Below, piece after piece: positions 24,610 through 40,294 of a DNA stretch of 64,000 bases. The notes below the pieces were generated by a model, which did no database searches, was not told the origin of the DNA, and saw only the letters and a program-made list of their open reading frames with translations. A program made the position numbers and the translations under genes. Origin of the DNA: a virus; IMG/VR virus record IMGVR_UViG_3300037264_000690, positions 1 through 64,000 of that record; one strand, given 5' to 3'. Numbering within the stretch: the stretch's first letter is position 1; each line of letters opens with the position of its first letter.

Positions 24610-24915
24610 TGTAGCCCGGTGATTTTCGTAATTTTCATCTGGAGGACAGCTGCTCAAGACCGAGTGCGGGGATTGGTGAAGGGACTAACCTTGCACGGTG
24701 GCCAAAGCACTGGCTGGTTAGAGGGTTCGGGCTAGGATCACGGACGATCCGGCTCAAACCTCGGAAGCCACGTTGAGTCGTTAGATGCGCGTGGCGTGGA
24801 GGTAGGCGGGTGTGCTCGTGGTAGACCGCCTTGTGGGCTTTGGGGGCGTACCCTCATTGCTTCGGACTCGTCGTAGGGGATGACGAGACCGTGCGAGGTG
24901 GTTCTTTCAGCCACG
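24610..24915 (+). ncRNA. Candidate structured ncRNA or long leader (six or more hairpins)
   Basis: Follows TGTTAGAAT (24598-24606); stems GTGCGGGG/CCTTGCAC, GGATC/GATCC, GCCACG/CGTGGC, AGGCGG/CCGCCT, CTCGTCGT/ATGACGAG. Confidence 0.5.
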
Positions 24916-24926
24916 GAGGGCGATCA

Positions 24927-25376
24927 ATGACTGCACTTGGTCTCCTTTTCGCACAAGAGTTCTATCCACCGATCACGCTGAGTGATATCGGCATGGTCGT
25001 TATGGCGCTCGCGCTCATTCTGCTCGTTGTCGAGCGAGTTAAGTCACTGTTCTGGCCATTCACGTCGCGCAATGAGGAATACGTCAGGCGAGTTGAGCTG
25101 GACGAGCTGAAGACCAAGCTTGAGAACTTCGTCACTCGACTTGAACTCCAACGCCTCGAACAACAGCTTATTAACCTTGGTCAAGACCATAAAGAGCTTG
25201 CCAAGGCAACCAACGCTAAGTACGACGACATGTGTAAGTCACTGACGGATTTGCGAGTGACCATTGAACAAGTTCGCCGAGAAATTCACGTTGAAACCAA
25301 TGCGGCGGCTGATCGGATCATCACTCGGCTCATCGCTCAAATGCCTATGCATCCGCATCGTGACGAGGAGGGGTAA
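24927..25376 (+). CDS. Membrane-anchored coiled-coil protein
   Basis: GGAGG RBS, one TM segment, heptads. Confidence 0.65.
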   Translation: MTALGLLFAQEFYPPITLSDIGMVVMALALILLVVERVKSLFWPFTSRNEEYVRRVELDELKTKLENFVTRLELQRLEQQLINLGQDHKELAKATNAKYDDMCKSLTDLRVTIEQVRREIHVETNAAADRIITRLIAQMPMHPHRDEEG

Positions 25377-25396
25377 TGTCAACTTGAAAGGTTTGT

Positions 25397-26683
25397 GTGT
25401 CAGATGAGGAAACACAATGGAGCCATGTCATGTACCTCAGCGTTCTAACCGTGACCCCAGCGAAAGCACTCGAAGTGAAGAAAGCCTTCGACGAGCTGTA
25501 CTTCGCCGCCAACGCGTACGTCTACATGGACAAGGCAGCGGGGACTCCCGCGCTATCTTATTCGCTTACCGGCCGCCTGGTGGGTACCAAGTCGGGTTGG
25601 GTAGTCCTCGAAGTGCCTATGGCGCTCGTACGCGGTGCGTTTGATGCGCTTAATGAACCTGGAGTAGAACTCCCACCGCCAGCTTCTGGTTACGATGATT
25701 ACAAGTCCCACATTTCAGTCATACGCCCGGAAGAACTAAAGGAGATTGGCGGCATTGATAGGATTTCTGAACGTGGTCACTTCTTTTCCTATGCGTTACG
25801 CAGTCTTAAATCTGTAGAGCCAGCTGGCTGGCCAGAAATGTCCAAAGTATGGTTCATTGAAGTTACTAGCCTGGCACTGAAAAATCTTCGCAAATCGTAT
25901 GGCTTAGAACCGTTGCCTAAGCATCAATTTCACATTACAATTGGGTGTAGGCGAAAAAGTGTTCTGAGGAATAACGATGTTAGCAAAGCGGCGGAAAGTT
26001 TGTTGCCGGTGCAAGAGACTCAGAATAACCAAAATGTTCTCGAAAGACCGATCCAAGAAGGATGGCCTGCAGAAGGTGTGCAATCTATGCCTAAAGAGGT
26101 ATCGGGACGAATATCGAACGAAGATAAGGCGTCAACAGCGTGCTCGTTACGAGTGTGTGGCCAGACAAATTGGTCGGAAGAAACATCACCATTTATCCAA
26201 CACACCAGAGCATCGAATCTGGAGAAAGATGCTTTGGCGCTGCAGCAGTCCAGTGTGTCAGATGTGGGCTCACTACGGCGAACGTGGTATTACCGTTTGT
26301 GCAAGATGGCAGGAGTTCCTGAATTTTTATCAGGACATGGGATTGCGTCCATCGATGCAGCATACGCTAGAACGAATCAACAACAACGGTCACTACGAAC
26401 TCAACAATTGTCGATGGGCAACTCAAAAGGAACAACAGAGAAACAGGCGCAACAATCATCTGCTGACTTTCGACGGCGTGACAGCTCCGATAGCCACATG
26501 GGCCGAGAAAATGAACATCAAACAACCAACACTGTCTCGCCGGATAAGAGTTGGCTGGTCAGTGGAGAAAGCCATAACTACACCAGTAAGATAGCTACAA
26601 TCGACAGAGCTGTCTTAGTCACCGCTATGAGATTGTCTAAGGAAATGAACGAGAAGCGAGCTGTTGAACGGCTGGAGAAGTAA
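25397..26683 (+). CDS. 2H phosphoesterase-domain protein; frame stays open across the nested HNH gene
   Basis: Paired HISV and HITI motifs in the first ~195 aa. Confidence 0.75.
   Translation: MSDEETQWSHVMYLSVLTVTPAKALEVKKAFDELYFAANAYVYMDKAAGTPALSYSLTGRLVGTKSGWVVLEVPMALVRGAFDALNEPGVELPPPASGYDDYKSHISVIRPEELKEIGGIDRISERGHFFSYALRSLKSVEPAGWPEMSKVWFIEVTSLALKNLRKSYGLEPLPKHQFHITIGCRRKSVLRNNDVSKAAESLLPVQETQNNQNVLERPIQEGWPAEGVQSMPKEVSGRISNEDKASTACSLRVCGQTNWSEETSPFIQHTRASNLEKDALALQQSSVSDVGSLRRTWYYRLCKMAGVPEFLSGHGIASIDAAYARTNQQQRSLRTQQLSMGNSKGTTEKQAQQSSADFRRRDSSDSHMGRENEHQTTNTVSPDKSWLVSGESHNYTSKIATIDRAVLVTAMRLSKEMNEKRAVERLEK
25977..26594 (+). mobile_element. HNH homing endonuclease gene nested in the +1 frame of 25397-26683
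   Basis: W..M..RC, YG.RGITVC.RW..F..F..DMG.RP, LERINNNGHY...NCRWAT..Q..N; GAGGA RBS. Confidence 0.9.
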
Positions 26684-26684
26684 G

Positions 26685-29378
26685 ATGTCTGAGCATCGAC
26701 ACCACCTGCCGGTCATCACAGTCGAGAGACACGATGGCAAGATAAAGGTCTGCCCCCACTGTCAACAAGAAGTTACAGAGAAGAGCATCTACCGCGACAA
26801 AAAGGGCTGGCTGTTCCATCGTCCGTGTTTTGCCAAGGGCAAGGGTTCGATTGGCATGGATAAGGAGAGTGGTATCCTGGTACCTGGTACTCTTGGCGCT
26901 GTTGTTGGTGGAGCCATTGGTGCCAGTGGTAAGGTTCCTCACGTCAATACTCTACGTGGTGCGTTGATTGGTGGTGGACTTGGGTTGGCGGCTGGCTCAC
27001 TTATGCCGGGTCAGCTCACTGATCCTCTGACCATGCTTACCCCTGAACGGCGACAGGAGTTAGAAGCGAGATTCAAGAAGATCACTAACACGCTTGATCG
27101 GTCAGGCACTGACGTTAACACACATCACAAGCGTGTGATAGTACCGCACGATTTCTTCAATGAAAATGATATGAGGGATTACGGTTTCCGCCCAAGTTAT
27201 ACTGCCATTCCCGAGCTTGGCCAGTCTGAATTCAGGACCTGGCGTCACCCATCGGACTTGCATCATTTTCATCGTCATCCACAAGGGTTCACAGTTCATA
27301 AGGATCAAGCTCATCCCGGTGTCAAGCATCTTGTCACTGAGGGCTTGCCGGCTTACGGTATGTACCTCAAGCGTCGCCTGGCAGCCTTCAAAGAGTCAGG
27401 TCAACCGAGCATGGCACAGGATATCCTGAATGAGAACCCGGAAGCGATCGTTAAATCCGGTTCAGCTCCAGTTATCCACGAGAAACAGGATAACGATTAT
27501 AACTGCGGTCCGGCGGCGCTTAAGGCGGTCGAGAACTCAATGGGCATCGGTCATACAAACCAACAGGCATACGAGAAGGAGACTAACACTAGCGAGGCTA
27601 ATGGCACCCCAATTGTCAACTTGGAACAGACGGCTGAAAATCATGGTCACGATGTGGACTCTGGCGAGATGAGCCTTGAGCAATTGAAACAACACGTTGC
27701 CGTTGGTACTCCGGTAATTGTTGCTGTGCAGCTTGATGGTCCAGAAGGTGGCCCAAGTGATGGCTGGGAATCTGGGCACTACGTTGTGATAACAGGCATT
27801 GATGATAATTCGGTGAGTTTCATGGACCCAAACTCTGACACACCTGAGCGGTCGTGGTCATTGCAGAAGTTCCTGAGTCGGTGGCACGACCATGATTATC
27901 GTGGCAACGTCTACAACAACTGGGGCATGGCATTAGCGAAGCAAGCGGCTGAGGTAGAAAAGGAGGATGAGAAGCCTAGTTGGTGGCGTCAGATGGGTTA
28001 TGCCGGTCTAGCTCCCGCTGGTCTGCTTAGTGCTGCACATGTGGCTCGTACTGGGTTGAACCGGATCATTCCCAGTATGTCTGAGCATGCACATACTATG
28101 ATACAGCGACCTGAGTTTGCTGCTGCTGTGGCACACGATCCAGCACAGGCTGCTGCTCTACAGTCTGCTGTTAAGAGCCGTTGGAATCTCATGCGGATGA
28201 TGTCTGGTCGAGACGTTGCTGGTGTTAATCCGGAAGCGCGTAAGAAGCTGATGGACGTTGTGCTGGGTAAACCGAATGCTGGCCCCGCTGTGCCTACACG
28301 ACAAGGCGACGTATTACTACATCATGCGTTTGGCGGTGAGCACGGTGTGGGAGGTCTCATTCGACAGACAATTGCTGGTGTTCCTTATGGTCATACAGCA
28401 ATGGTGGGACCAAAGGACAACATCTACGATATGTATGGCCTAGCTGGTGGGCGTCAGTACAAGGTCGTTGAGTATCCGATGCGGCGATGGCGCAGCAATG
28501 ATCCTCATCACCAATATATGCGCATTCGCCCGAATATCAGTAACACCGTGGCTCATGCTGGTGGCGAAGATGTGGTTGGTAAGGCGTATCGTAGTGTGCT
28601 TGATCCAAAGACTGGACTGGCGCCATACGGTCATCGTACTAACACCGAAATTCATCTTGCTGAGGGCATGCCTGAGTTTACGCTTCCATCCGGTCGTAGT
28701 GTCTTTACAACTTTGGTGGATAAGATCATGGGTAGCGACGCTAGCAGGAAGCTGTCGAAGATGTTGCCGTCCAACTTTGGTGGTGACTTTCTCAGGAAGT
28801 GGCGTATTGGTATGAAGTGTAAGCCCGGTGAGACGTGCACCACACTGGTGCATCGTGGTCTTGAGGCACTGAAACCTGGCTTATTACAGAAGCCAGAAGG
28901 TATAGCTGCCGGTCCGGTTGATTTTCAGAGGGGCATCGGCAAGCAATTTGAGCCGGTTGAGCTTAATTTGCCTCGGGCATATCGTAAGCCTAGTCATATC
29001 TACGGTGAACACTTCTCTAAGTACGGACCACTGGCTGTGCGCGCCCTGCCGATTGCAGCTTTGGCTGGTTTGGGTATTTACGGTGGTTACAAGGCGCTAT
29101 CGCCGATGTTCAAGCAAAAGGAAGAGGAACCAATAACCCCAAAGTTGGCTGCTGATGGCGAGCTTGGTTCCGGTGGCGATCAAAGTCAGTCATCTGGGCA
29201 AGCTCAGGCTCTGGATGCATCCGGCTCTGCAATAGCTGGTCGTACCGATCAACAGCCGGCTAACCAAGAGCTGCTCAATCAATTGGAACAGCCACCAGAT
29301 CCACAGGTGTTTGACATGAGCACAGTAGAGAAGGCTGCTGCTCCGCTCTGGTTGATGACGCCGCGACTACCTAATTAA
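26685..29378 (+). CDS. Modular protein: Zn finger, unknown domain, C39 peptidase, permuted NlpC/P60-like domain, with K-x-A/S linkers
   Basis: QDNDYNCGPAAL...GHYVV...MDP; QGDVLL...YGHTAM...CTTLV. Confidence 0.7.
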   Translation: MSEHRHHLPVITVERHDGKIKVCPHCQQEVTEKSIYRDKKGWLFHRPCFAKGKGSIGMDKESGILVPGTLGAVVGGAIGASGKVPHVNTLRGALIGGGLGLAAGSLMPGQLTDPLTMLTPERRQELEARFKKITNTLDRSGTDVNTHHKRVIVPHDFFNENDMRDYGFRPSYTAIPELGQSEFRTWRHPSDLHHFHRHPQGFTVHKDQAHPGVKHLVTEGLPAYGMYLKRRLAAFKESGQPSMAQDILNENPEAIVKSGSAPVIHEKQDNDYNCGPAALKAVENSMGIGHTNQQAYEKETNTSEANGTPIVNLEQTAENHGHDVDSGEMSLEQLKQHVAVGTPVIVAVQLDGPEGGPSDGWESGHYVVITGIDDNSVSFMDPNSDTPERSWSLQKFLSRWHDHDYRGNVYNNWGMALAKQAAEVEKEDEKPSWWRQMGYAGLAPAGLLSAAHVARTGLNRIIPSMSEHAHTMIQRPEFAAAVAHDPAQAAALQSAVKSRWNLMRMMSGRDVAGVNPEARKKLMDVVLGKPNAGPAVPTRQGDVLLHHAFGGEHGVGGLIRQTIAGVPYGHTAMVGPKDNIYDMYGLAGGRQYKVVEYPMRRWRSNDPHHQYMRIRPNISNTVAHAGGEDVVGKAYRSVLDPKTGLAPYGHRTNTEIHLAEGMPEFTLPSGRSVFTTLVDKIMGSDASRKLSKMLPSNFGGDFLRKWRIGMKCKPGETCTTLVHRGLEALKPGLLQKPEGIAAGPVDFQRGIGKQFEPVELNLPRAYRKPSHIYGEHFSKYGPLAVRALPIAALAGLGIYGGYKALSPMFKQKEEEPITPKLAADGELGSGGDQSQSSGQAQALDASGSAIAGRTDQQPANQELLNQLEQPPDPQVFDMSTVEKAAAPLWLMTPRLPN

Positions 29379-29665: not shown

Positions 29666-30430
29666 ATGGCTATTGCAGTCAAACGTTACGGGTGGAAGCC
29701 CGACCACCCGGATCATAGAGACTTCAAGTATCGAGCCACCGCACCTGTATTGCAGGCATTACCTGTTAAGACAGACCTGCGATCTGGCTGCCCAGCCATT
29801 GATAATCAGCTTGAACTTGGCTCTTGCACGGCCCAGGCGCTGTCTGGTCTGTGTCAGTTCGTTGATAGTAAGATTGGCGTCGACGACGTCGTTAAACCCA
29901 GTCGACTCTTCATTTACTACAACGAGCGGAGGATCGAAGGTACTACCGACTCTGACAGCGGTGCGTATCTGCGCGACGGCATGAAGGCCCTGCAGCGCTG
30001 GGGTTATCCACCCGAAGAATTGTGGCCTTATGACATCTACAAATTTGCTCGCCAGCCGTCAAAGGTCATCTATGAAGCTGCTGTCTCCAGTAAGATCGAC
30101 ACCTACAGCCGTGTCACTCAAAGCGAAAAGCACCTCAAGGCGTGCCTAGCTGAGGGTTTCCCGGTGGTCTTCGGCTTTACCGTCTACAACAGCTTCGAGG
30201 CGGAACACGTCGCTCATACTGGCATCATGACGATGCCAATACACTCTGAGGCGCCGGTTGGTGGTCATGCCGTTATGTTGGTTGGCTATGACGACGAGAA
30301 GCAGTATTGGATCGTGCGCAACAGTTGGGGTGTTGAGTGGGGTGACAAGGGGTATTTCTATATGCCCTATAGTTACCTGGTCGATCCTGACCTATCTGCC
30401 GATTTCTGGACCGTCCGGTACGTGGCATAA
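29666..30430 (+). CDS. Papain-family (C1) cysteine peptidase
   Basis: Q...GSCTAQA, GGHAV..VGY, RNSWG..WG..GY. Confidence 0.92.
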   Translation: MAIAVKRYGWKPDHPDHRDFKYRATAPVLQALPVKTDLRSGCPAIDNQLELGSCTAQALSGLCQFVDSKIGVDDVVKPSRLFIYYNERRIEGTTDSDSGAYLRDGMKALQRWGYPPEELWPYDIYKFARQPSKVIYEAAVSSKIDTYSRVTQSEKHLKACLAEGFPVVFGFTVYNSFEAEHVAHTGIMTMPIHSEAPVGGHAVMLVGYDDEKQYWIVRNSWGVEWGDKGYFYMPYSYLVDPDLSADFWTVRYVA

Positions 30431-30443
30431 TGTGAGTATGGCG

Positions 30444-30457
30444 AGTAATTTTCTACT
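30444..30457. promoter_or_regulatory. AGTA-N6-TACT box
   Basis: AGTA-ATTTTC-TACT before AGGAG. Confidence 0.6.
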
Positions 30458-30466
30458 CAGGAGTAC

Positions 30467-30787
30467 ATGATGGTCACGATCCGTTGTTTCCCTGGTGATG
30501 TGCTAACTCTGACGGTCAAGAATCGTGGTAACGATGGCGGTTTCTACATTTCGGCTACGAAGCCTGTGTGGACGCTGTCCAGCCACGTCCTAGCTGAGTT
30601 CTTCGAGATGGCTCAGGATGGTCATAGCATCAAGGTTAAGGCCATTGCCGTCGGTGCTCCAGTAGTAACGGCGACCATTGACACCGGTAATGAGACCTTC
30701 ACGCTTAATATCGTGGCGCCACCGGCTCTGTCGAAGGTGCCAATGGGTGATTATGAGCGTAATCCAGCGTTGCGGCTCAAGCCGTAA
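30467..30787 (+). CDS. Small beta-rich (Ig-like?) protein
   Basis: PVW..S...A...G...VTAT pattern shared with 30907-31251. Confidence 0.5.
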   Translation: MMVTIRCFPGDVLTLTVKNRGNDGGFYISATKPVWTLSSHVLAEFFEMAQDGHSIKVKAIAVGAPVVTATIDTGNETFTLNIVAPPALSKVPMGDYERNPALRLKP

Positions 30788-30906
30788 TCTGGTTTGAACT
30801 AACCTGGCCAGACCTGGTAGAATCAAGTTGTAGTCGATGCCTTGGTTGATGGAACCTCCCTTGGCCGGGAGGTCAATCAGGCTAGACCACACGGGGGTTT
30901 ATAATC

Positions 30907-31251
30907 ATGGCCATTACCGTAACGACCCTGCAGCAAGTTAGGCTGCATGTCGCTGCAGTTGCCCCAACGGGCAAGGTTCCACCAGTACCAGCACCAGTGT
31001 GGACTAACAGCCATCCAACGAAGGTGGCGCTTGCGTTCCCGCAGGGCGATACCAACACGGTTATCGCTATCGGCCTGGCAACGCAGGTTGGTGTCAGCAT
31101 TACAGCCACGAGCGGTATCCTGGTGCAAGTCTTCACCATTGACGTCGTATCTCCTGATGCAACTGCACTCACCGGCTCCAATGAGCTGCCTGAGAGCCAG
31201 AATGACCTCAACCGCAGTCGCGGTCGTGGTCTGGGTCTTGGCTACCAGTAA
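30907..31251 (+). CDS. Small beta-rich (Ig-like?) protein
   Basis: PVWTNS.P...AIG....ITAT; follows TGGTAGAAT (30815). Confidence 0.55.
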   Translation: MAITVTTLQQVRLHVAAVAPTGKVPPVPAPVWTNSHPTKVALAFPQGDTNTVIAIGLATQVGVSITATSGILVQVFTIDVVSPDATALTGSNELPESQNDLNRSRGRGLGLGYQ

Positions 31252-31275
31252 GCCGGCCTGCCGTCATATTTATTG

Positions 31276-31310
31276 CCCGGCACTTCCCAAAAAGTGCCGG
31301 GTTTTTCTTT
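31276..31310 (+). terminator. Intrinsic terminator
   Basis: CCCGGCACT...AGTGCCGGG + TTTTTCTTT. Confidence 0.75.
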
Positions 31311-31327
31311 GACTGTGAGCTACCACT

Positions 31328-31882
31328 ATGTCTAGCAAAAAACTGATTCAGTTACACGAAGACAAACTATTCCTTCATGAAGCTCAGCGCTTTCGTAAGT
31401 ATGCTGATAACGTTCCGACTCTCCGGAAACGGCTGGTCAAACTTGGTTATAAGGATCAGGCTTGTCTGCTTGATCAACTCCGCTGGCTTAAGGAGCCTGA
31501 CAAGCTAATAGCAGTTGACGCACCTGACAGAGCTCCGATCAACATCTTCGGTGGCGGTCAGATCTCTCGACAACCGTTCAACTTCGGCACCATTCCTGAT
31601 AAGCCAGTTGATGCTGTTAGCTGGTTGACTAACCTTGGCGCACTGCGTCTAGACAATCATTTTCAGTGTCACTGGGCTGCTTGCACCATCGTCATTGCGG
31701 TCAACGGTTGGCGTGATGATAAGATCACCCGACGCGGCCGGCGGTGGGTCTATCAGCCACCCGATTTACCGCGAGCGTCCTTCCTGTTGCATTGGAAGGA
31801 TCATCGTGATGTCTTCAATGACTGGAAGCGACATATGGCCCGTCTTTGTATTGTCGCTGCAACCCTCTATAAAATAACATGA
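31328..31882 (+). CDS. Hypothetical protein
   Basis: 184-aa ORF. Confidence 0.5.
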   Translation: MSSKKLIQLHEDKLFLHEAQRFRKYADNVPTLRKRLVKLGYKDQACLLDQLRWLKEPDKLIAVDAPDRAPINIFGGGQISRQPFNFGTIPDKPVDAVSWLTNLGALRLDNHFQCHWAACTIVIAVNGWRDDKITRRGRRWVYQPPDLPRASFLLHWKDHRDVFNDWKRHMARLCIVAATLYKIT

Positions 31883-31947
31883 TGATAAGATGGAGTTCGT
31901 TCGCCAGTTGCCACTCATGGTCAAAGTCCAGTTTAAGGGTGATGTAG

Positions 31948-33459
31948 ATGGCTAACGATGCAATGATGTCGCTGAATAAGGAGGTGGTCAGTCTCTTCGA
32001 CTCGATCAAGCAAGCTGACATCCTTCCTGAAGTACAGATGCAGCCACATCAAGCACGTTTGCAGATGGAAGCGCAAGGCGAACCGTCTCGTAAGCTGCTC
32101 TATCATGCTCTTGGGTCAGGCAAGACGCTCTCGGCCCTAGGAATGGCGGAGGCTCAGCAGCAGCCGTATACTGCCATTGCACCAGCTGCCCTTCGCGCAA
32201 ACTGGAAGTCGGAGATCCAGAAATTCACTGACGAGAAGACTCCGCAGCACGTCATGAGCTACTCCGAGCTGGCTCGTGGCAAACCTGTGCCATATCAGCA
32301 CACAATCATCTTCGACGAGGCTCATCGGCTGCGCAACATTGGGACTGCTCAGACCAGTCAGGCCCTTCGCGCTGCAGAGAAAGCGCATCAGATTACGTTG
32401 CTATCTGGCTCGCCAGTCGTCAACGATCCACAGGATCTAGCAGTGCCGACTCGGATGCTCACCGGCCAGAAGATCAGCCCTCAGCAGTTCCGTCAGCGTT
32501 ACGTTGGCGAACGGGAGGTCAGACCAGGCTTTTGGGCTCGCTTGCGTGGTGTGCCTGCTGGTCGAGAGGAAGACATCCAGAATGCTGAGGAGCTGAAGGC
32601 GTTACTCAAGGGTCGGGTTGACTACTATGCTCCGAAGTCGACGACCGTGCCAGTCAAGCACGAGGTTCATGATGTTGAAATGGGCGTTGAGCAGAGTCAG
32701 ATCTATCGTGGCATGTGGGAGAAGCTGCCGTGGCATATCCGATGGAAGCTGAAGAACGACTTCCCCATGAACTCCGAGGAACTACAGCGATCGGTCAGCT
32801 TCCTAACGGGGCCACGGCAGGTCAGCCTGTCGCCATACCCGTATATGCGTGAAAAGAATCCGGTCAAAGCATTCCACATGTCGCCCAAGTTGATCAAGGC
32901 TCACGAGGAGATGCAGAAGCACCTCAGTCACCCGGACAAGAAGGCATTGGTCTTCAGCAACTACATCGACGCTGGGCTGACGCCGTACTCTGCCAAGTTG
33001 ACAGAGCAGGGTGTACCCAATGCCCTCTTCCATGGTGGGCTCAACGACAAGCAGCGAAAAGAGCTCGTCGAGAACTTCAACACTGGCAAGATTCGTGTGG
33101 CCCTGATCGGTCCCTCTGGTAGTGAGGGCCTGTCATTTAGAGGCACCCAACTGATCCAGATGCTTGATCCGTATTGGCACCAAACCAGAACAAATCAGAT
33201 GCAAGGACGTGGACTGCGGTTCGATAGCCACACTGGTTTGCCGGAGGACCTGAAGGATGTGACTGTGCAGCAGTTCTCCTCGAAGCTACCCCTGGGCTTC
33301 AAGGATAGACTGTTGTCACGGATTGGCTTCGACCGGTCACGTCAGGCAGCTGGTGCTGATGCCTACTTGAAGGAAATGGCTGCTCGCAAGGAGAGGCTGA
33401 ATCAGAAGTTCCTGAACCTCTTGAAGGAGGTTGGTTTACAGAATGGACGTGCAGCATGA
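31948..33459 (+). CDS. SNF2-like superfamily-2 helicase
   Basis: GSGKT, FDEAH, LSGSP, SEGLS, Q..GRGLR. Confidence 0.9.
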   Translation: MANDAMMSLNKEVVSLFDSIKQADILPEVQMQPHQARLQMEAQGEPSRKLLYHALGSGKTLSALGMAEAQQQPYTAIAPAALRANWKSEIQKFTDEKTPQHVMSYSELARGKPVPYQHTIIFDEAHRLRNIGTAQTSQALRAAEKAHQITLLSGSPVVNDPQDLAVPTRMLTGQKISPQQFRQRYVGEREVRPGFWARLRGVPAGREEDIQNAEELKALLKGRVDYYAPKSTTVPVKHEVHDVEMGVEQSQIYRGMWEKLPWHIRWKLKNDFPMNSEELQRSVSFLTGPRQVSLSPYPYMREKNPVKAFHMSPKLIKAHEEMQKHLSHPDKKALVFSNYIDAGLTPYSAKLTEQGVPNALFHGGLNDKQRKELVENFNTGKIRVALIGPSGSEGLSFRGTQLIQMLDPYWHQTRTNQMQGRGLRFDSHTGLPEDLKDVTVQQFSSKLPLGFKDRLLSRIGFDRSRQAAGADAYLKEMAARKERLNQKFLNLLKEVGLQNGRAA

Positions 33460-33827
33460 TCACGATACTCTTTTTAATCAGTGTTGTAGCTAATAACATC
33501 ATGATTGTATGGTGCTACTACACCCGTAGGTCTCGTAACGAGACCAGGTCATTGCGCGGTGGCTTTGAGCATATGTACTTCACTGAGAACGAAAAGCTCA
33601 GGAAGGCTCGGGCTCGTGTTCAAGAGCTGGAGACAGCCGTTGCTACCCATATGAACGCCAAGGGTCATCAGCGGTGCTGGATCAATGACTTGGAGCTGTA
33701 CCGAGTGATCAAGCCAGAAGTTGATAAGATGAGTCTTGCTCTACCCTGTTTGCCAGAGTTCCTGCACAACTGCACGGTCTACTGGCGTGATAGCCAACCA
33801 CCAGAAGCACGGAAACTCGGAGGCTAA
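33456..33827 (+). CDS. Membrane-anchored hypothetical protein
   Basis: N-terminal TM segment; GH.RCW.ND. Confidence 0.55.
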   Translation: MITILFLISVVANNIMIVWCYYTRRSRNETRSLRGGFEHMYFTENEKLRKARARVQELETAVATHMNAKGHQRCWINDLELYRVIKPEVDKMSLALPCLPEFLHNCTVYWRDSQPPEARKLGG

Positions 33828-33829
33828 CT

Positions 33830-35518
33830 GTGCCAAGACAATCAGTTGGAATCCCCGATCATGATGCCTATGGTGATCCACTGGCTGGCCTGACTACTGG
33901 CCAGCTTGCTGATTGGGTTGTGCAGCGTCACATGGCTCAACGCGCTGGCGAACACTATGATGTCCGCTTCGGCACACCTGAAACTGGACTGTATTCTTGG
34001 GCAGCACGTAATGGTCTGCCCATGCCTGGCCAGAAACACCTCGCTGTCCAACAACCCATCCATGCTCATGGGTATAAGGACTTCCAGGGTGTCATCCCTC
34101 GTGGTTACGGTGCTGGCTCGGTCAGTAAGACTCAGTCAGGTCACGTCTTGGTAACCAGGATCGAGCCGAATGCAATCCACTTCACCACTGCGCGAAGTCG
34201 ATTTCCCGAACGATTCGCTCTGATCAAGCCGAAGAGTGGCAAGAACTGGCTATTGCTAAACACTACCAAGACCCAACCAATTCCTTACGACAAAGTTCAC
34301 TACGCGACCATCCCTACCGAGAAAGCTGAGGAGATTATTGATGGTCTTCAACCAGGAAGCTCAGTACAAGCAAAAGTTGATGGTGCAGCAAGTCTCACAA
34401 AACTGTTCAAAGACCACGTCGAGGTGGTTTCCTATCGAACGGCAAAAGGAACTGGATACCCAATTGTCCACACCGAGCGAGTGTTCCACGGACGACCCGG
34501 GGCTCAGATCCCTCGTGAGCTTATTGGAACGGTTTTGCGGGGGGAACTATATGGCGTTGGTCCCGAAGGTCGTGCTATTCCATCACAGCAGCTTGGTGGA
34601 CTCCTCAACGCCGGAGTGGCTAAGTCGATCCAAAGGCAACGGGATCAGCAGATCAAACTGCGTAATCTTGTTTTCGACATTCACCAGCTTGGAGAATCGC
34701 CAACAGCAGCTATGCCCTACGCTCAGCGGCTTGCCAAGTTGAAGGAGATCCTGCCGCTTCTGCCGAGCAGCGAGACGTTTCATGCTCCAGAGGAAGCAAG
34801 GACTCCAGTTGAAGCCCGTGCGCTTTTCGAACGTATACGTGCTGGTCAGCATCCATTGACCAGTGAGGGTCTGGTCGTTCACTCACCTACGGGAGTTCCG
34901 TCCAAGATCAAGTTCATGGAAGACCACGATGTTCATGTTCGTAGCATCTTCCCTGGTGAAGGTAAGTATGAGGGCATAGGTGCTGGTGGCTTCAACTACA
35001 GCCATGAGCCTGAAGGTCCCATCATTGGTCGAGTTGGTACTGGACTGTCCGACGAGATGCGTCGTGACTTGTTGGAGAACCAGGACGACTATGTTGGTCG
35101 TGTCGCCAGGGTACAGGCCCAACAGAAGTTTCCATCTGGTTCGTTACGGGCACCATCGTTCATTTCCTTCCATGAGGACTACCCAGCTCGTCAGGCAGCA
35201 CAGACCGCTGCATCCGAGATGGGGTCGGCACGTCAGCGTATTCGCACCATGCGGCAACCAACGGCTGGCAATCCAGCTGAGCACGTCGGTGGCGCCTTAG
35301 CAGCGTTACGTCAAGCAAAGAAAGAGTCTGATCGCGGTAACTGGCCAGCTAAGCATGATCTGCTACGACAGACCATTCGCTCCGAGCCACACAATTTCAT
35401 AATTGACTCAGAGATGGCTGGCATTACCGGCTTGACACACAAGCCAACCGGGTTCAAAATCCACATTCCAACCCCAACTGTGCCGACGGAGCTGCGAGTT
35501 GCAAAGGGGGCCATATGA
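33830..35518 (+). CDS. LigD-type 3'-phosphoesterase domain fused to ATP-dependent DNA ligase
   Basis: VVQRH.A....HYD.R...SWA; KVDG, RGELY, FDI, EGLV, KIK, OB fold VGTGLSD. Confidence 0.85.
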   Translation: MPRQSVGIPDHDAYGDPLAGLTTGQLADWVVQRHMAQRAGEHYDVRFGTPETGLYSWAARNGLPMPGQKHLAVQQPIHAHGYKDFQGVIPRGYGAGSVSKTQSGHVLVTRIEPNAIHFTTARSRFPERFALIKPKSGKNWLLLNTTKTQPIPYDKVHYATIPTEKAEEIIDGLQPGSSVQAKVDGAASLTKLFKDHVEVVSYRTAKGTGYPIVHTERVFHGRPGAQIPRELIGTVLRGELYGVGPEGRAIPSQQLGGLLNAGVAKSIQRQRDQQIKLRNLVFDIHQLGESPTAAMPYAQRLAKLKEILPLLPSSETFHAPEEARTPVEARALFERIRAGQHPLTSEGLVVHSPTGVPSKIKFMEDHDVHVRSIFPGEGKYEGIGAGGFNYSHEPEGPIIGRVGTGLSDEMRRDLLENQDDYVGRVARVQAQQKFPSGSLRAPSFISFHEDYPARQAAQTAASEMGSARQRIRTMRQPTAGNPAEHVGGALAALRQAKKESDRGNWPAKHDLLRQTIRSEPHNFIIDSEMAGITGLTHKPTGFKIHIPTPTVPTELRVAKGAI

Positions 35519-35994
35519 TGAATATAAGTGTAATTGACCTGCTCGTGATATGTCTCGTCACGATGTTGCTCAACTGCATGTTGCTCGTCTTTGTGGCAGT
35601 GTGGTTGTACTGCTACTTTGATGAGAAGATCGAGCAACTGACCAGGTCGAATCGACGTTTGCTTACGCGTCTTGATTGTCAAGAGGATGCGACGAAGAGG
35701 TTGCAAATCTTCAATCCGCTGGCAGAGGAGATCTATCCGCCAATCTTTGACTTGGCATCGATAGCTGCACAAGTATCACCGATGGCTGAGGAGTTGGCCA
35801 CGGAGGAACCATCGCCATACTTCACCTACCTTAAATCACACAAAGAGTTGTGGAGGCTGCAAGTTAAGGGCGAGGATAACTCGGATTATGCCGACTATCT
35901 TCGTGGCGTCATGGACGAGTGCTACGCCAAGCTCAACATAGTTGAGCAAGAGAATGCTGATCGTGAATCAGCCGAGGCGTGGAAGAACATCTAA
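35515..35994 (+). CDS. Membrane-anchored hypothetical protein
   Basis: N-terminal TM segment. Confidence 0.55.
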   Translation: MMNISVIDLLVICLVTMLLNCMLLVFVAVWLYCYFDEKIEQLTRSNRRLLTRLDCQEDATKRLQIFNPLAEEIYPPIFDLASIAAQVSPMAEELATEEPSPYFTYLKSHKELWRLQVKGEDNSDYADYLRGVMDECYAKLNIVEQENADRESAEAWKNI

Positions 35995-36019
35995 AAAGGT
36001 CATGGTAACGTGTCAGTAT
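35992..36019 (+). promoter_or_regulatory. Class-A promoter-like motif (variant)
   Basis: TAAAA-N13-GTGTCAGTAT. Confidence 0.6.
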
Positions 36020-36221
36020 TCAGTGGCGTGGCTTATCATAAAGGCCAAACATCTGCCATCATGAGCAGATGAGCGACGTCGTCCCACCAGTGCTGATTTT
36101 TACATCATAGCACTTGATATAAGTGGCGAGGACGGTTACAGTTTCCTTATTGGAAGCATCGGGGATGGCAACGGTTGTCAACCTCACTACTTCTTTAGAG
36201 CTCAGTTCAGAAAGGTCAGTC

Positions 36222-36347
36222 ATGACGAACTCGTGTAGCGCACCGGGTGCACCCAAGCCAGCCGCCATCAAAAAGGGCACTCCCCGCAAGGGCAGCACGG
36301 CAAAGGGCAAGGGTACGAAGGGCAAGGGCAGTAGCCGTGGGCGTTAA
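36222..36347 (+). CDS. 41-aa Lys/Gly-rich basic peptide
   Basis: AAAGG RBS; KG repeats. Confidence 0.5.
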   Translation: MTNSCSAPGAPKPAAIKKGTPRKGSTAKGKGTKGKGSSRGR

Positions 36348-36381
36348 GCCCCGGTAACCGCATATTTGCCTCTGTAAGTAC

Positions 36382-36409
36382 ACGAGGGGCTCCGCAAGGA
36401 GCCCCTCGT
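36382..36409 (+). terminator. Strong hairpin (terminator or processing site)
   Basis: ACGAGGGGCTCC-GCAA-GGAGCCCCTCGT. Confidence 0.55.
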
Positions 36410-36465
36410 TGCGTTTCAAGCACAGCGCATTTTCTTTAAGCATCAGGGGGTTGGTAGTGTCAACG

Positions 36466-37659
36466 ATGATGAAGATGTTTCAGGATGTCATGATATGTCT
36501 CGATCAACAGCTAAATGTGCTGCTGGTCAGTGCCCCAGGTATGGGCAAGAGTTCATTCACGAAATGGATGGCTAATGAACTGAATGTCTTGCATATCGAT
36601 ATCAATCTCTCGCAGAATGAGGGTATTGACGTTCACGGAGCTCGAATCATTGCCCGTGAACCAAAGACGATTAATGGGAAGCAATGCACGGTTACAGTGC
36701 AAGCCCCACCTGATTACGCCATTGACGCTACAGACTCCAATCGTGGCGCATTGATCAACTTCGAGGAGTTGACCTGCATCCCGCCGGCTGAAGCTGGTCC
36801 AACACTGGGCATCTTCTCGGATTACATCATCGGAGGCATCCGTCTCGACAAGGAGAGGATTGGCATCACGGCGTGCTGTAATCCGCCGGAGATGTCCGCT
36901 GGTGGTTGGAAGCTTAGTCTACCCACGATTAACCGATTCGTGCGGCTCAACTTCGATCAAGACGTGACGGAGTGGGCAGAGAATTTCATCACTTACTGGG
37001 ACAATCCACCAGTTATCAAGAGATGGAATCGTGAAACTTCTGAGTCCGAGTGGTCGCGTGATCGTGCAGTCGTCGCCTCGTTTGCCAGGCAGTTTCCTGA
37101 CTTGGTGAACAAACCACCCGAAGCTGGCTCCGCTGATGAATCCTTCTGCACATTCCGCTCGCTTGACTTTGCCAGTCGTATCAAGACAGGCTGTCGGCTG
37201 CGCAATGCAACCGAGGATGTGCGACAGAGGCTATGGGCTGGTGCGTTAGGAGGTGCCACCGCTAAACAGTTGTGGGAGTACCTCAACCATTTCGATCTTC
37301 CTTCTCCATCGGAGATCATTGATAATCCGGGGAACTTCGACATGACGATCGTCCCCTCGGACAAGATGTTCTACCTAATCATGGCCTGTGTCGCTGAGAT
37401 CATGAATCGCAAGCGGCAGGGCGATGCCAAGAAGAAGGACATGAAGTTCCACAGCTACGTCATCAAGTCGTGGCAGAGTATGTGGGATATTCTGCTGCTG
37501 GTACTCAAGAGTCGTGGCCCAAAAGACATTGTGGCTGCAGCAGCTCGGCGGATTGCCGATCCAGCAAACTACCCGAAAGGTGCTGAGCCACCCACGGCGA
37601 TTGAAGATATCGTTAAGGTGGTGCGGGCATCTGGCGTTGATTGGAGAAGGAAGGCATGA
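36466..37659 (+). CDS. MoxR-like AAA+ ATPase
   Basis: APGMGKS, INFEEL, CNPP, NRF. Confidence 0.8.
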   Translation: MMKMFQDVMICLDQQLNVLLVSAPGMGKSSFTKWMANELNVLHIDINLSQNEGIDVHGARIIAREPKTINGKQCTVTVQAPPDYAIDATDSNRGALINFEELTCIPPAEAGPTLGIFSDYIIGGIRLDKERIGITACCNPPEMSAGGWKLSLPTINRFVRLNFDQDVTEWAENFITYWDNPPVIKRWNRETSESEWSRDRAVVASFARQFPDLVNKPPEAGSADESFCTFRSLDFASRIKTGCRLRNATEDVRQRLWAGALGGATAKQLWEYLNHFDLPSPSEIIDNPGNFDMTIVPSDKMFYLIMACVAEIMNRKRQGDAKKKDMKFHSYVIKSWQSMWDILLLVLKSRGPKDIVAAAARRIADPANYPKGAEPPTAIEDIVKVVRASGVDWRRKA

Positions 37660-38258
37660 GTTTTGCCATCCAGCTCACATGCTCAGATGCAACCCACGAA
37701 GTTGTTGTCGATCTAGAGCGAAAGCTAATCTATCTACCCAGTCATGACGCCGAGTTCGTACGACGCTATCAAGCGTTGTATGAACTCGGCGGTGATCCTA
37801 TTCCATGTTGTGCCATGGCCATCGACTTGTTGTCCGGTCTCCACCCTGGATACCTTCAATTGCATTACGATCTGTTTAATTTAGAAGTGCTCACGCCCAC
37901 GTACTGTAACTGGCGTGACGCATTATCTAGAGCTATTGACTGTGTTTGTTATCGCGTAACCATCGTGTCAGGATTGAAATCACCAACCATCATTGGGCGA
38001 GTTGGTTTCTACATCGGAGCAACTCGCGGTCAAATCATCCGTAATGTCAAGGCGTTTGAGGACAAGGGTGGAAAAACCATCTTCTATCCGCCAACGCTTC
38101 GTTGTCTTGTTGGGGAGCATTGGCTTATTGCAAACCGTCTCGTTGAGCGAGCTCTTGATGATGACTTCTCCCCAACAGATCCTGATCCAGCGTGGCATAC
38201 CGCGACTCTTGCTGGAGGGCACTATGAGCCAGCTTCGCATTCCAGTGCGGTGCGATGA
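37656..38258 (+). CDS. Hypothetical protein, C-H-H-C family member 1
   Basis: C....H...H...RY..L.ELGG....C. Confidence 0.6.
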   Translation: MSFAIQLTCSDATHEVVVDLERKLIYLPSHDAEFVRRYQALYELGGDPIPCCAMAIDLLSGLHPGYLQLHYDLFNLEVLTPTYCNWRDALSRAIDCVCYRVTIVSGLKSPTIIGRVGFYIGATRGQIIRNVKAFEDKGGKTIFYPPTLRCLVGEHWLIANRLVERALDDDFSPTDPDPAWHTATLAGGHYEPASHSSAVR

Positions 38259-38499
38259 GGCCGTCCACCACATCGAGATCGATCCGCTCAAATTGGAGGC
38301 GTATCTGCTCGATCACCAGATCACCATGGAGCGCTACGCATGCCTTGAAGAGATCGGTGGCGATCCACCAATGTGCTACAAGATGTGCAAAGCCTTCAAC
38401 GACATTTCAGCACCATTCCGCAACACCCCGCAGAAGTTCTGGGAGTTCGTGACTGAACTCTCCGACTTTGCGAGGAAAAAGCACGAGGACATCCTATGA
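38224..38499 (+). CDS. Hypothetical protein, C-H-H-C family member 2
   Basis: GGAGG RBS; same motif. Confidence 0.6.
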   Translation: MSQLRIPVRCDEAVHHIEIDPLKLEAYLLDHQITMERYACLEEIGGDPPMCYKMCKAFNDISAPFRNTPQKFWEFVTELSDFARKKHEDIL

Positions 38500-39845
38500 G
38501 CGTTGTGACCGTTGAAATCCCACCTGAGCTTCTGGAAAGGGACATCTACTCTGCTCGTCTCCGTGCTTGTGATGCCACGACCGGGTTCCCTTTTCTCAGC
38601 TACGGTTTGATGAGCCTGATCCCTGTCATCACCAGTAAGGTGAAGACTTGTGCGGTCGACAAGTGGTGGCGGGTGTACGTCAACCCGGACTTCTTCAGCT
38701 CGCTGACTCCCGACGAGGGAGCCATGGTCATGGTCCACGAGGTCTGGCACTTGCTGCTTGAACACGCACGACGTGCCGTCGACTACGGCATCCCCACAAC
38801 CGATCACGAGATCTGGAACTGTGCAGACGACATTGAGATCAACCAGCACGACGCGATCTTCAAGCGGCTGCCAGGCAAGCCACTGACGCCGAATACTTTC
38901 GGCTTCAAGCGCAACTTGCTGGCTGAGGAATACTACGAGCTGCTCAAGAAGAACACGACCACCATCGAAATCTGCTTCATGCCTGGTTCTGGTGCCTGCG
39001 GCTCGTGTGCTCATGGCAATCCGGAGGACTACGAGTTGCCGGAACCGACCCACTCGACTGGTGAGTCCAAGGACGGTGAGTCCAAGGACGGTGAGGCTGG
39101 CGATGAAAACAGTCAGAAGGATTACGTGCCTGGCATCAGTGAGATGCGAGCCAAGATCATTGCCCAGGAGGTTGCAAGGCAGATCCAGGAGGCAGCCAAG
39201 TCTTGTGGCAACGTGCCCGAGGGTTGGCAGCGCTGGGCAGACCGGACGCTGACGCCGATGGTGGACTACCGTCCGTTCCTGCGACAGAGCATCCAGGGCA
39301 TGATCGTTTCTAAGTCGGGCTATGTCTACCCGAGTTATCGTAAGCCCAGTCGCCGACAACACCTCAACCCCGACTTCCTACGGCCGTTCTACAAGGATAT
39401 CCTGCCGCAGGTCGCCATGATCATCGACACCTCTGGTTCGATGAGCGATCAGCAGGTGGGGCAGGGCATTGCTGAAGTGGATGGCGTGCTGTCCACCTTC
39501 AGTCACCGGGCTGCCATCGCGGTGTATTTCACTGACGCTGCAGCTGCTGCAGCACAGAAGGTTTGCTGCACCAAAGACCTACGGCCCATTGGTGGCGGCG
39601 GCACAGATATGGGTGAAGGTTTCCAGGCCATTGACGCTGACGTGAAAAAGAACCCCGGTTCACAGCCATCGACCATCATCGTCATCACCGATGGCTACAC
39701 GCCGTGGCCAGCAAAGCCACCCAGCTACGCTAACGTCCTCGTCGTCCTGGTGGGGGATGGTGACACGGCGCCATGGGCCAAACCACCCGTTCATGGCACA
39801 ATCAAATTGAAGATGCCTAAGCCGAAGCCGCAACGGCAGCATTGA
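38496..39845 (+). CDS. Metallopeptidase-like (HExxH) plus vWA-like domain protein (DUF2201-type)
   Basis: HEVWH, WN.A.D.EIN, IDTSGSM, GGGGT, ITDGY. Confidence 0.85.
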   Translation: MSVVTVEIPPELLERDIYSARLRACDATTGFPFLSYGLMSLIPVITSKVKTCAVDKWWRVYVNPDFFSSLTPDEGAMVMVHEVWHLLLEHARRAVDYGIPTTDHEIWNCADDIEINQHDAIFKRLPGKPLTPNTFGFKRNLLAEEYYELLKKNTTTIEICFMPGSGACGSCAHGNPEDYELPEPTHSTGESKDGESKDGEAGDENSQKDYVPGISEMRAKIIAQEVARQIQEAAKSCGNVPEGWQRWADRTLTPMVDYRPFLRQSIQGMIVSKSGYVYPSYRKPSRRQHLNPDFLRPFYKDILPQVAMIIDTSGSMSDQQVGQGIAEVDGVLSTFSHRAAIAVYFTDAAAAAAQKVCCTKDLRPIGGGGTDMGEGFQAIDADVKKNPGSQPSTIIVITDGYTPWPAKPPSYANVLVVLVGDGDTAPWAKPPVHGTIKLKMPKPKPQRQH

Positions 39846-39870
39846 TAAACGGTTCCTTGGCCGTCCTGCG

Positions 39871-39911
39871 GAGTGGGTGGTGACATAAGTTGCCACCCAC
39901 TCTTTTTCTTT
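39871..39911 (+). terminator. Intrinsic terminator
   Basis: GAGTGGGTGGTGAC-ATAA-GTTGCCACCCACTC + T run. Confidence 0.8.
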
Positions 39912-39969
39912 ACCCAACAAGACGTTACACTAGTAATAGTTATGTAGGACCTCTAACTTCGGGGGCAGC

Positions 39970-40278
39970 ATGACCATTAAGCTGTATGACGCTGTTCGTC
40001 AGTGCATCCGTGCTCAGATCAACATGCAAACAGCACAGCACAGCCTGTCTGATCCAGCCAACATCGATAGTCATCGTGACAATCTGAGACACAACTGTTT
40101 GCATGAGGCGTTATACATGTCGCTTGGAGTTCTGGCTCGACTTGATGTCATCAACGACCCCATGAACGATCAAGCACAAACATCCGCACGCGAGTTGATC
40201 GGCGTACTTTCTCAACGTCTAGACATTGACGTGGAAGACAAGTTCGGTGTACCCTTAAAGTCTAGGGGTGAAGTGTAG
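39970..40278 (+). CDS. Hypothetical protein
   Basis: 102-aa ORF. Confidence 0.55.
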   Translation: MTIKLYDAVRQCIRAQINMQTAQHSLSDPANIDSHRDNLRHNCLHEALYMSLGVLARLDVINDPMNDQAQTSARELIGVLSQRLDIDVEDKFGVPLKSRGEV

Positions 40279-40280
40279 CG

Positions 40281-40294
40281 AGTAGTTTTTTACT
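40281..40294. promoter_or_regulatory. AGTA-N6-TACT box
   Basis: AGTA-GTTTTT-TACT before the RBS. Confidence 0.6.

Follow-up and report, generated by a model that had tools for sequence, protein, structure and literature searches.

Homing genes are associated with their host genes as inteins, as intron-borne genes or as free-standing genes (I-HmuI, I-TevI), and in phage Aeh1 the gene mobE splits nrdA. Same-strand nested genes are also familiar from phages, including lambda Rz1 within Rz and the phiX174 genes B, K and E; these are host-function genes that are thought to have been overprinted. The closest precedent of the arrangement described here is provided by the ShiLan "hidden" HNH genes, which are out-of-frame insertions in actinophage (mycobacteriophage) DNA methylases (Arsenault, Gosselin, and Gogarten, 2025; Genes 16:178; PMC11855218). 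The same article relates a Tiff81 gene to the Pacc40 insertion and does not mention polyvalent proteins, DarB or Ralstonia (PMC11855218). Polyvalent proteins of phages and conjugative elements were treated in a separate study (Iyer et al., 2017; PMC5512222). Hidden HNH genes have been known since 2025 from phage methylases; what is new here is their common occurrence in a polyvalent gene family.

The present locus lies in the window, i.e., the whole 64,000-nucleotide stretch of viral DNA that was analyzed. A gene for an HNH-like putative homing endonuclease is nested, on the same strand, within a longer host gene, and the relevant features are as follows.

25430..26683, plus strand: host gene, consisting of a 2H-SAK domain, about 205 codons of read-through over the HNH gene and a 28-aa tail (ORF list)
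25598..25957, plus strand: 2H-SAK phosphoesterase domain, host residues 68-187 (Pfam PF22547, E 3e-11)
25966..25970, plus strand: Shine-Dalgarno-like GAGGA, 6 nt before the HNH ATG (sequence)
25973..25993, plus strand: N-D-V-S-K-A-A, a conserved linear motif at the end of the 2H module (alignments A1, A3)
25976..26596, plus strand: dual-coding stretch with a stop-free host-frame "shadow" peptide of about 205 residues (shuffle test)
25977..26594, plus strand: nested HNH-like putative homing endonuclease gene, 205 aa, with ATG 25977 and TAG 26592-26594 (ORF list, sequence)
26597..26683, plus strand: host tail T-I-D-R ... E-M-N-E-K-R-A ... E-R-L-E-K plus TAA (alignment A1 with P0002-P0005 and L029)
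26674..26687, plus strand: GGAG and ATG 26685 of the downstream 897-aa gene (sequence)

From GTG 25397 to TAA 26681-26683, the host ORF runs open for 428 codons; its likely start is ATG 25430, which matches the beginning of the called protein P0001 (417 aa) at host-ORF residue 12. Position 25977 lies 580 nt beyond 25397, placing the HNH gene in the +1 frame, and the preliminary description was exact in locating the 205-aa HNH wholly inside ORF 25397-26683, as it was in locating S-K-A-A at host codons 196-199 (25982-25993) and S-K-I-A at codons 397-400 (26585-26596). The HNH frame is blocked upstream by a TGA (25965-25967), 12 nt ahead of its ATG. This start codon arises from host GAT GTT within the conserved N-D-V-S-K-A-A motif, and the HNH stop lies 2 nt before host homology resumes. 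Both ends of the HNH ORF fall within a few codons of the boundaries seen in comparison with HNH-free alleles, and less than about 20 nt of insertion sequence lies outside the ORF.

Across the HNH gene, the host frame contains no stop codon. When the synonymous codons of the HNH ORF were permuted and stops were counted in the alternative frames, a mean of 10.65 stops was expected in the host frame and none of 100,000 shuffles was stop-free (P<1e-5); the other alternative frame has 13 stops, with 10.9 expected under the same shuffling. The preliminary description had estimated the open frame naively at 5e-5, a figure that proves about right, and had proposed the synonymous shuffle, which now decisively places the open frame beyond chance. 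In the 35 other genes of the window, the same relative frame carries 6.58 stops per 100 codons, and its longest open run is 118 codons versus 206 here. The window HNH has 41 NNT codons and 57 codons beginning with AA, AG or GA, at many of which a single synonymous change could make a host-frame stop; none is present. Relatives of the HNH behave differently: 22 from IMG/VR have 5-27 stops each in the host-equivalent frame, and 79 of a further 80 have at least one. Altogether, HNH queries gave 102 relatives, 101 of which have stops there and so cannot be read through.

The nested arrangement was also found in four metagenome loci (L035, L056, L040 and L047) and in the cultured Ralstonia phages Gamede and GP4. 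Host-frame stops number 0 in L035 versus 6.5 expected (P 5e-5), 0 in L056 versus 5.9 (0 of 20,000 shuffles stop-free), 0 in L040 versus 6.0 (P 6.5e-4) and 0 in L047 versus 3.5 (P 0.015), and the +1 control frame of these four has stops as expected. The stop-free host frame of the Ralstonia phages gave P 0.005 for Gamede and P 0.02 for GP4 by shuffling. These other embedded loci are 59-65% GC, at which open alternative frames come more easily, and their individual P values are weaker than that of the window. A chance open frame is rejected by the shuffle tests together with the recurrence at other loci. Selection on HNH synonymous sites keeps the host frame stop-free. Thus, homing genes would be able to persist in coding sequence without splicing.

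In every embedded locus, the host frame is the HNH frame minus 1. Two or more linker sites are occupied, the insertions lying in inter-domain linkers after 2H-SAK, after InPase and in DarB-like genes. Of 149 representative 2H polyvalent proteins, about 15 match an HMM of the shadow; the matches lie within uninterrupted called ORFs, in which Pfam domains (AAA_18, InPase, LigD_N, SNF2) often follow the shadow. For P0005, P0006 and the other shadow-bearing proteins, it is the host-frame shadow that points to a nested HNH; P0005 and P0006 were not found in a search of IMG/VR contigs. P0006 aligns with the window host frame through the overlap. In Gamede, the carrier is the DarB-like gp42 (4639 aa), and AAGGAG stands ahead of the nested ATG in both Gamede and GP4. 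Comparison of Cimandef with Gamede shows flanks that are 100% and 98.5% identical, with 423 nt replacing a 714-nt HNH segment; Heva and Dimitile have the same gap as Cimandef (blastn table).

HNH-free alleles also exist outside the Ralstonia phages. L056 and the HNH-free L057 have a common C-terminal module, in frame past the insertion, and L029 is a syntenic HNH-free relative of the window. In the close HNH-free alleles (P0002-P0004 and L029), the 2H domain leads into N-D-V-S-K-A-A and then into further modules, and these alleles bear both the E-(L/M)-N-E-K-R motif of the tail and its E-R-L-E-K end. The earlier expectation of a 2H domain joined to the tail in HNH-free alleles therefore holds in substance. 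Homologues ending right after the 2H domain, which had been named as speaking against read-through, occur only at a distance (L003/L050 and the upstream 2H ORF of L047), whereas the close alleles continue.

The putative HNH assignment of the nested ORF rests on a PHROG profile, phrog_3377 ("HNH endonuclease"; E 1.3e-51); the Pfam and NCBIfam HNH models matched none of 21 family members. The protein has a Cys-rich N-terminal extension, a core at residues 68-160 and a C-terminal HTH, and all 13 invariant family positions are kept. AF2 pLDDT is mostly above 90 over residues 70-205 (80-97 by block). Among 48,161 chains, the best match of the model was the restriction enzyme PacI, at a middling Z of 6.6 (rmsd 3.2 over 79 residues, model residues 69-161), and the I-TevI DNA-binding domain gave Z 3.5. 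A Foldseek search against the PDB returned nothing significant, its top match being I-HmuI at E 1.1; I-HmuI is also a weak PDB profile match (E 0.095). In this weak alignment, the D-H position is (D/E)-R with R133 invariant, the usual catalytic His apparently being Arg, and the Asn positions N144 and N156 are kept in the family. The window HNH is 42% identical to a gene of Arthrobacter phage Tiff81.

The term "overprinted", used in the preliminary description, is a misnomer. Because the HNH family is old and mostly free-standing, the gene was inserted rather than born de novo. De novo overprinting is rejected in view of homologues in more than 1000 phage records and of the host-equivalent-frame stops in 101 of 102 relatives; nearly all of the best 40 listed phage-record homologues sit under small stand-alone gene annotations.

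The host 2H-SAK domain contains both H-x-(S/T) motifs, with AF2 pLDDT of 86-98 over model residues 10-175. It has 835 homologues, and it forms the N-terminal module of proteins of 190-2913 aa. K186 is nearly invariant in the N-D-V-S-K-A-A motif (alignments A1, A3), which is also present in HNH-free alleles and is coil in a low-confidence part of the AF2 model. In relatives, the N-terminal 2H is followed by GNAT, P-loop kinase, InPase, HAD-like, LigD_N, SNF2 and peptidase modules. The window protein holds one catalogued polyvalent domain (2H-SAK) and its closest relatives hold 2-5 or more; judged by the several unrelated domains of these closest relatives, the host gene belongs to the polyvalent proteins. 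Neither blastn of 24800-27800 nor tblastn of the 2H domain gave a match in phage records.

The host tail is a predicted helix (pLDDT 78-90) that looks like a mosaic of module-boundary remnants from HNH-free alleles; (T/I)-I-D-R-P-K-G-F, for example, stands at a module start in L047 and P0004. The ATG of the downstream 897-aa gene lies 1 nt past the host stop and its GGAG within the last host codons, an arrangement that makes translational coupling of the two genes possible. The 897-aa gene encodes a glycine zipper and a C39-like peptidase (Pfam Peptidase_C39_2; NCBIfam), and its N-terminus is homologous to the C-terminal part of P0006, where both are in a single ORF. A papain-like peptidase gene is also found just downstream of the host gene.

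Between embedded pairs, identity is 44% in the HNH frame versus 23% in the host frame, and free-standing pairs show 22% in the latter. Changes between Gamede and GP4 are concentrated at HNH third positions. The shadow peptide is mostly predicted to be disordered, with AF2 pLDDT mostly <50. By these comparisons, the HNH frame is the constrained one; the HNH is predicted to fold confidently and the host-frame stretch is not. Selection on the shadow peptide sequence was looked for and not found, its identity being practically that of free-standing pairs. A word-indexed search of longer proteins with the shadow region found nothing.

Very probably, then, a mobile homing-endonuclease gene of HNH-like type sits, in the +1 frame, inside the flexible linker after the 2H-SAK domain of a jumbo-phage polyvalent gene and is tolerated there by read-through without splicing. 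Host-frame ribosomes would translate straight over the HNH gene, yielding a disordered spacer of roughly 200 residues, and a polyvalent protein built as beads on a string would tolerate such a spacer, leaving RNA or protein splicing unneeded. The HNH itself might be made at a low level through internal initiation. It may spread by cutting HNH-free alleles during co-infections; its patchy distribution suggests homing. In the window, the downstream modules appear to have been lost, with a 28-aa remnant left, and read-through may mainly preserve the tail helix and the coupling to the next gene.

That only 28 host codons follow the HNH gene, and that distant homologues stop after the 2H domain, makes the benefit of read-through in the window less evident. 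The read-through could be a relic here: the stop-free frame would have been inherited from ancestors in long polyvalent genes, and the host would now be a stand-alone 2H protein with a useless extension. The resemblance of the 28 codons to remnants of deleted modules fits such a history, as do the existence of stand-alone 2H proteins of about 202 aa and the compatibility of the embedded HNHs with one lineage. We nevertheless regard it as unlikely, given that no stop has appeared at any of the many codons one synonymous change away, that the host stop lies 1 nt before the next ATG with GGAG in the last host codons, and that the conserved E-M-N-E-K-R helix is kept in the tail.

The preliminary description had instead proposed that a phage maturation protease excises the read-through peptide at bracketing K-x-A motifs, freeing the 2H domain and the tail. 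S-K-x-A is indeed rare in window proteins (0.037 per 100 aa) and the host ORF has it nowhere but at the two borders of the HNH gene, and N-D-V-S-K-A-A is strongly conserved, linear and in a predicted unstructured region, as expected of a processing site. Proteolytic processing has been proposed for polyvalent proteins and shown for P1 DdrB (PMC5512222), and C39-like and papain-like peptidase genes lie just downstream. However, the 2H module itself ends in the upstream S-K-A-A as a conserved motif; being present in HNH-free alleles and stand-alone 2H proteins, this motif does not bracket the insertion. The downstream S-K-I-A is a by-product of the HNH end, dictated by the final codons (final Arg codon) and TAG. 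Of the four metagenome loci, only L056 (C-K-V-A) and, more loosely, L035 repeat a downstream K-x-A. L040 and L047 lack one, and none follows the shadow in the sequences of P0005 and P0006. C39 peptidases, moreover, cut after Gly-Gly, a specificity that does not fit K-x-A. Removal by a protease at these motifs is thus improbable.

Splicing is less probable still. HNH genes are common intron passengers and the insertion is almost exactly filled by the HNH ORF, so an HNH-bearing group I or II intron or an intein, with the open frame incidental, might be imagined. Yet an Rfam covariance search of 25000-27200 gave no match at E<=1, and no Hint or intein family was found in the host ORF at E<=0.1 (Pfam finds only 2H-SAK), which bears out the earlier view that the host gene is spared without a recognizable intron or intein. 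An ORF that starts in host-conserved codons and ends 2 nt before homology leaves hardly any non-coding room for a ribozyme core, and the stop avoidance seen in 7 loci would be superfluous in spliced insertions. Equally remote is a 2H-HNH fusion made by programmed ribosomal frameshifting, for although the same relative frame (+1) is used at all loci and some have the HNH frame open 90-117 nt upstream of the proposed start, the window has a TGA 12 nt before the HNH ATG and GAGGA at the right distance, Gamede and GP4 have AAGGAG and ATG, no common slippery site was seen, and a fusion would not need an open host frame downstream.

Returning to the nested mobile gene tolerated by read-through, a wider proposal can be put forward tentatively: the embedded HNHs may be a lineage of "frame-transparent" homing cassettes, of a length that is a multiple of three and with a minus-1 frame kept stop-free as the element's own adaptation, that could settle, with no need of splicing, in whichever flexible linkers polyvalent or DarB-like virion-cargo genes offer. 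If true, such cassettes would represent a third way, besides introns and inteins, of keeping a homing gene inside coding sequence. These loci offer replicated, quantitative evidence that selection can keep stops out of an alternative frame for 200 codons across a mobile endonuclease gene. They extend a single 2025 precedent to large polyvalent/DarB-like cargo genes of jumbo and podo-like phages, in about one-tenth of family representatives. Gene callers give only the long ORF; nested endonucleases are thereby invisible, and the shadow "linker" is mistaken for host protein. Cultured, nearly isogenic phages with the HNH (Gamede, GP4) and without it (Cimandef, Heva, Dimitile) allow direct tests of translation, processing and homing.

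Compared with the ShiLan insertions, the window arrangement has much in common: the insertion is filled by a same-strand HNH gene read in another frame and brings no stop into the host frame, the HNH gene terminates within the final bases of the insertion, intron and intein features are absent, the host-frame product is predicted to be disordered or loop-like, and presence among close relatives is patchy (PMC11855218). By sequence, the link runs through the Tiff81 gene (42% to the window HNH), whereas the ShiLan HNH is likened by description. The differences are also clear. Here, the host is a polyvalent gene and the insertions lie in inter-domain linkers, whereas those of ShiLan interrupt conserved residues of a single enzyme; the nested frame is offset by +1 here versus the "third frame" there; and a Shine-Dalgarno sequence is present here, whereas no detectable RBS was reported and leaderless initiation was proposed for the methylase insertions (PMC11855218). 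In addition, stop avoidance is quantified here, and about 1 in 10 host-family representatives are carriers.

As with other homing genes, the host gene survives its occupation by a selfish endonuclease gene, and the HNH core resembles I-HmuI and PacI while the C-terminal HTH resembles the I-TevI DNA-binding domain. Unlike introns, inteins and mobE, the window HNH involves neither a splicing element nor a split host; the host would simply translate the same DNA in another frame. Relatives of the window gene resemble the described polyvalent proteins in that variable modules come after an N-terminal 2H phosphoesterase; in word searches of PMC5512222, however, the one occurrence of HNH is in connection with GmrSD, and a gene nested out of frame does not come up. 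Finally, like Rz1 and the phiX174 genes, the nested HNH gene is complete, has a start codon of its own and lies in the +1 frame within a longer gene; in contrast to them, it is an imported mobile element with free-standing relatives.

The window spans the opening 64 kb of an IMG/VR phage contig of 94.4 kb, whose completeness is estimated at 46%. Because the encoded proteins include a helicase, a ligase, and multisubunit-RNA-polymerase-like proteins, the phage is classed as jumbo-type. Hits to several phage RNA polymerase beta-subunit PHROGs identify an 1835-aa ORF (44058-49565) as a fused multisubunit-RNAP-like gene of the kind typical in jumbo phages. The locus studied here consists of an HNH ORF nested within a polyvalent-protein gene. 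All coordinates in the preliminary description, including both S-K-x-A tetrapeptides, agree exactly with the ORF list and the sequence. A second, unrelated HNH gene lies among replication genes, most of it overlapped by an antisense ORF.

25397-26683, plus strand: host ORF of 428 codons, probably starting at ATG 25430, where the called protein P0001 also starts
Host residues 68-187: N-terminal 2H-SAK phosphoesterase domain (Pfam PF22547, E 3e-11)
25977-26594, plus strand: nested HNH ORF, wholly within the host ORF, +1 frame (PHROG 3377 'HNH endonuclease', E 1.3e-51)
38496-39845, plus strand: second HNH endonuclease gene, 449 aa (phrog_1314, E 2.9e-49)
38376-39362, minus strand: antisense ORF, 328 codons

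The suspicion that stops are avoided in the host frame was borne out by synonymous-codon shuffling of the window HNH, which yielded a mean of 10.65 host-frame stops against the observed zero and no stop-free sequence in 100,000 shuffles. In the same shuffle, the other alternative frame contained 13 stops versus 10.9 expected. The same relative frame carries 6.58 stops per 100 codons in the window's 35 other genes (longest run, 118 codons), 5-27 stops in each of 22 IMG/VR relatives of the window HNH, and at least one stop in 79 of the 80 sequences most closely related to the embedded copies. Chance is thus ruled out by the shuffles, the window genes, and the HNH relatives. The remaining one of these 80, at 2955-4103 of locus L075 (IMGVR_UViG_3300027905_000635), lacks any stop in its core's minus-1 frame; it has a 383-codon open span at a GC content of 0.65 and could represent a further embedded copy, in a different host gene.

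Scanning metagenomes for 2H loci returned 41, four of which contain an HNH homologue. In each of these, the frame lying one base upstream of the HNH frame stays open throughout and forms part of a polyvalent ORF 510-1260 codons long; as expected, the other alternative frame is closed. These loci are GC-rich, making their individual shuffle tests weaker than that of the window.

L035: 0 stops observed, 6.5 expected; P(0 stops) 5e-5
L056: 0 stops observed, 5.9 expected; stop-free in 0 of 20,000 shuffles
L040: 0 stops observed, 6.0 expected; P(0 stops) 6.5e-4
L047: 0 stops observed, 3.5 expected; P(0 stops) 0.015

The L040 insertion lies after the 2H domain, like that of the window. In L035, L047, and L056, the stretch before the insertion is one that matches Pfam InPase (PF18823) in the related proteins P0027 and P0078, and the HNH start codon falls on the same host codons at all three loci. 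In L057, an HNH-free allele of L056, the common C-terminal module resumes in frame 3' of the insertion. An HMM built from five host-frame peptides conceptually translated across the HNH ORFs (shadows) was searched against 149 other 2H cluster representatives and matched about 15, each within an uninterrupted called ORF, at residues ~175-200 or deeper at ~360-540. Domains recognized downstream of the shadow within these ORFs are AAA_18, InPase, LigD_N, and SNF2.

Cultured phages carry the same arrangement. A tblastn search of phage records with the window HNH identified Ralstonia phage Gamede, in which the homologue occupies the +1 frame of gp42 ('DarB-like antirestriction', 4639 codons) with its own AAGGAG and ATG; GP4 is organized identically.

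Gamede, NC_054958 (L070, record 29819-43738), L070 6028-6582: nested HNH-like gene, 184 aa, +1 frame, unannotated
GP4, NC_054964 (L073), L073 1637-2191: nested HNH-like gene, 184 aa, +1 frame, AAGGAG and ATG, unannotated

Neither embedded copy has a host-frame stop (P 0.005 and 0.02, respectively). In phage Cimandef, flanks of 100% and 98.5% identity enclose an unrelated 423-nt segment instead of the 714-nt HNH segment, making this stretch 291 nt (3 x 97) shorter. The blastn table has this gap for Heva and Dimitile too, which suggests that they also carry such a segment. RefSeq annotates the Gamede/GP4 locus as one 4639-aa 'DarB-like antirestriction' CDS, and the paper describing these Ralstonia phages does not mention the nested HNH.

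At least 835 proteins (190-2913 aa) have the 2H domain as their N-terminal module; they form a polyvalent-protein family in the sense of Iyer et al. (2017; PMC5512222). Alignments of the closest HNH-free alleles (P0002-P0004 and L029, a locus syntenic with the window) show the 2H domain followed by the same N-D-V-S-K-A-A motif and then by other modules. The expectation that such alleles would join the 2H domain to the window's tail holds in substance: its E-(L/M)-N-E-K-R motif and E-R-L-E-K end recur in all of them, which indicates that the tail was left over from a longer gene and is in the correct frame. The alignment of P0006 (1490 aa) with the host frame continues straight across the overlap. 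Because only 28 host codons remain 3' of the HNH, read-through in the window itself may be partly a relic. The product of the following gene (26685-29378) combines a Zn-ribbon and a glycine zipper with a C39-like peptidase. Homology between its N-terminus and the C-terminal portion of P0006, a single ORF, suggests that this phage has the polyvalent protein divided between two genes. Next comes a gene for a papain-like (C1) peptidase (29666-30430). In L029, ~1.3 kb (5879-7172) separates the 2H polyvalent gene from a homologue of a 904-aa gene and lacks plus-strand ORFs of at least 70 codons. In a 234.9-kb phage contig (L003/L050), a CsrA-like 67-aa gene on the opposite strand (4468-4671, minus) directly follows a stand-alone 2H gene.

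Mean identity between embedded pairs is 44% in the HNH frame versus 23% in the host frame; the latter equals that of free-standing pairs (22%) and is near that of the unused +1 frame. Selection on the host frame acts on openness only, not on sequence. The window HNH retains every invariant family position, and its model has pLDDT mostly >90 over residues 70-205 (80-97 by 10-residue block). The host-frame model is confident for the 2H domain, falls mostly below pLDDT 50 across the overlap, and has a helical tail. The HNH tree is compatible with a single origin of the embedded copies, though weakly supported: four of the five group at 85/81, with the window copy on a long branch. No HNH model of Pfam or NCBIfam matched the nested HNH. 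A PDB profile search retrieved I-HmuI alone (E 0.095), and in this weak alignment the usual D-H is (D/E)-R. Among structural matches, the HNH enzyme PacI ranks first (Z 6.6); the C-terminal HTH is similar to the DNA-binding domain of I-TevI (Z 3.5). 'HNH-like' is a reasonable label for the putative endonuclease.

With respect to splicing, no Rfam family was found over 25000-27200 of the window at E<=1 and no Hint/intein family in the host frame; the window has hardly any insertion sequence outside the HNH ORF. A frameshift fusion is argued against by the TGA that closes the HNH frame 12 nt 5' of its ATG and by GAGGA 6 nt upstream. It had also been proposed that a maturation protease excises the nonsense peptide at bracketing K-x-A sites. 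Neither site supports this: the upstream S-K-A-A is part of a conserved 2H end motif also present in HNH-free and stand-alone homologues, and the downstream S-K-I-A is encoded by the last HNH Arg codon plus TAG, recurring only in L056 and weakly in L035. N-D-V-S-K-A-A is conserved yet predicted to be unstructured, and so might act as some kind of linear signal. Processing of polyvalent proteins has been proposed (PMC5512222), but nothing links it to the HNH insertion.

An arrangement with the same logic was reported in 2025, in the ShiLan domain of DNA methylases from mycobacteriophages and in Pacc40 gp60 (PMC11855218), and a 2026 preprint describes an out-of-frame homing endonuclease within a cyanobacterial intein. 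Polyvalent proteins, DarB, and Ralstonia phages go unmentioned in the ShiLan paper. New relative to these precedents are the family of host genes and the position of the insertion in a linker, the +1 offset with its own Shine-Dalgarno, stop avoidance quantified and replicated in seven loci, an estimated frequency of ~10% of family representatives, as counted by the host-frame shadow in proteins, and cultured HNH+/HNH- phage pairs.
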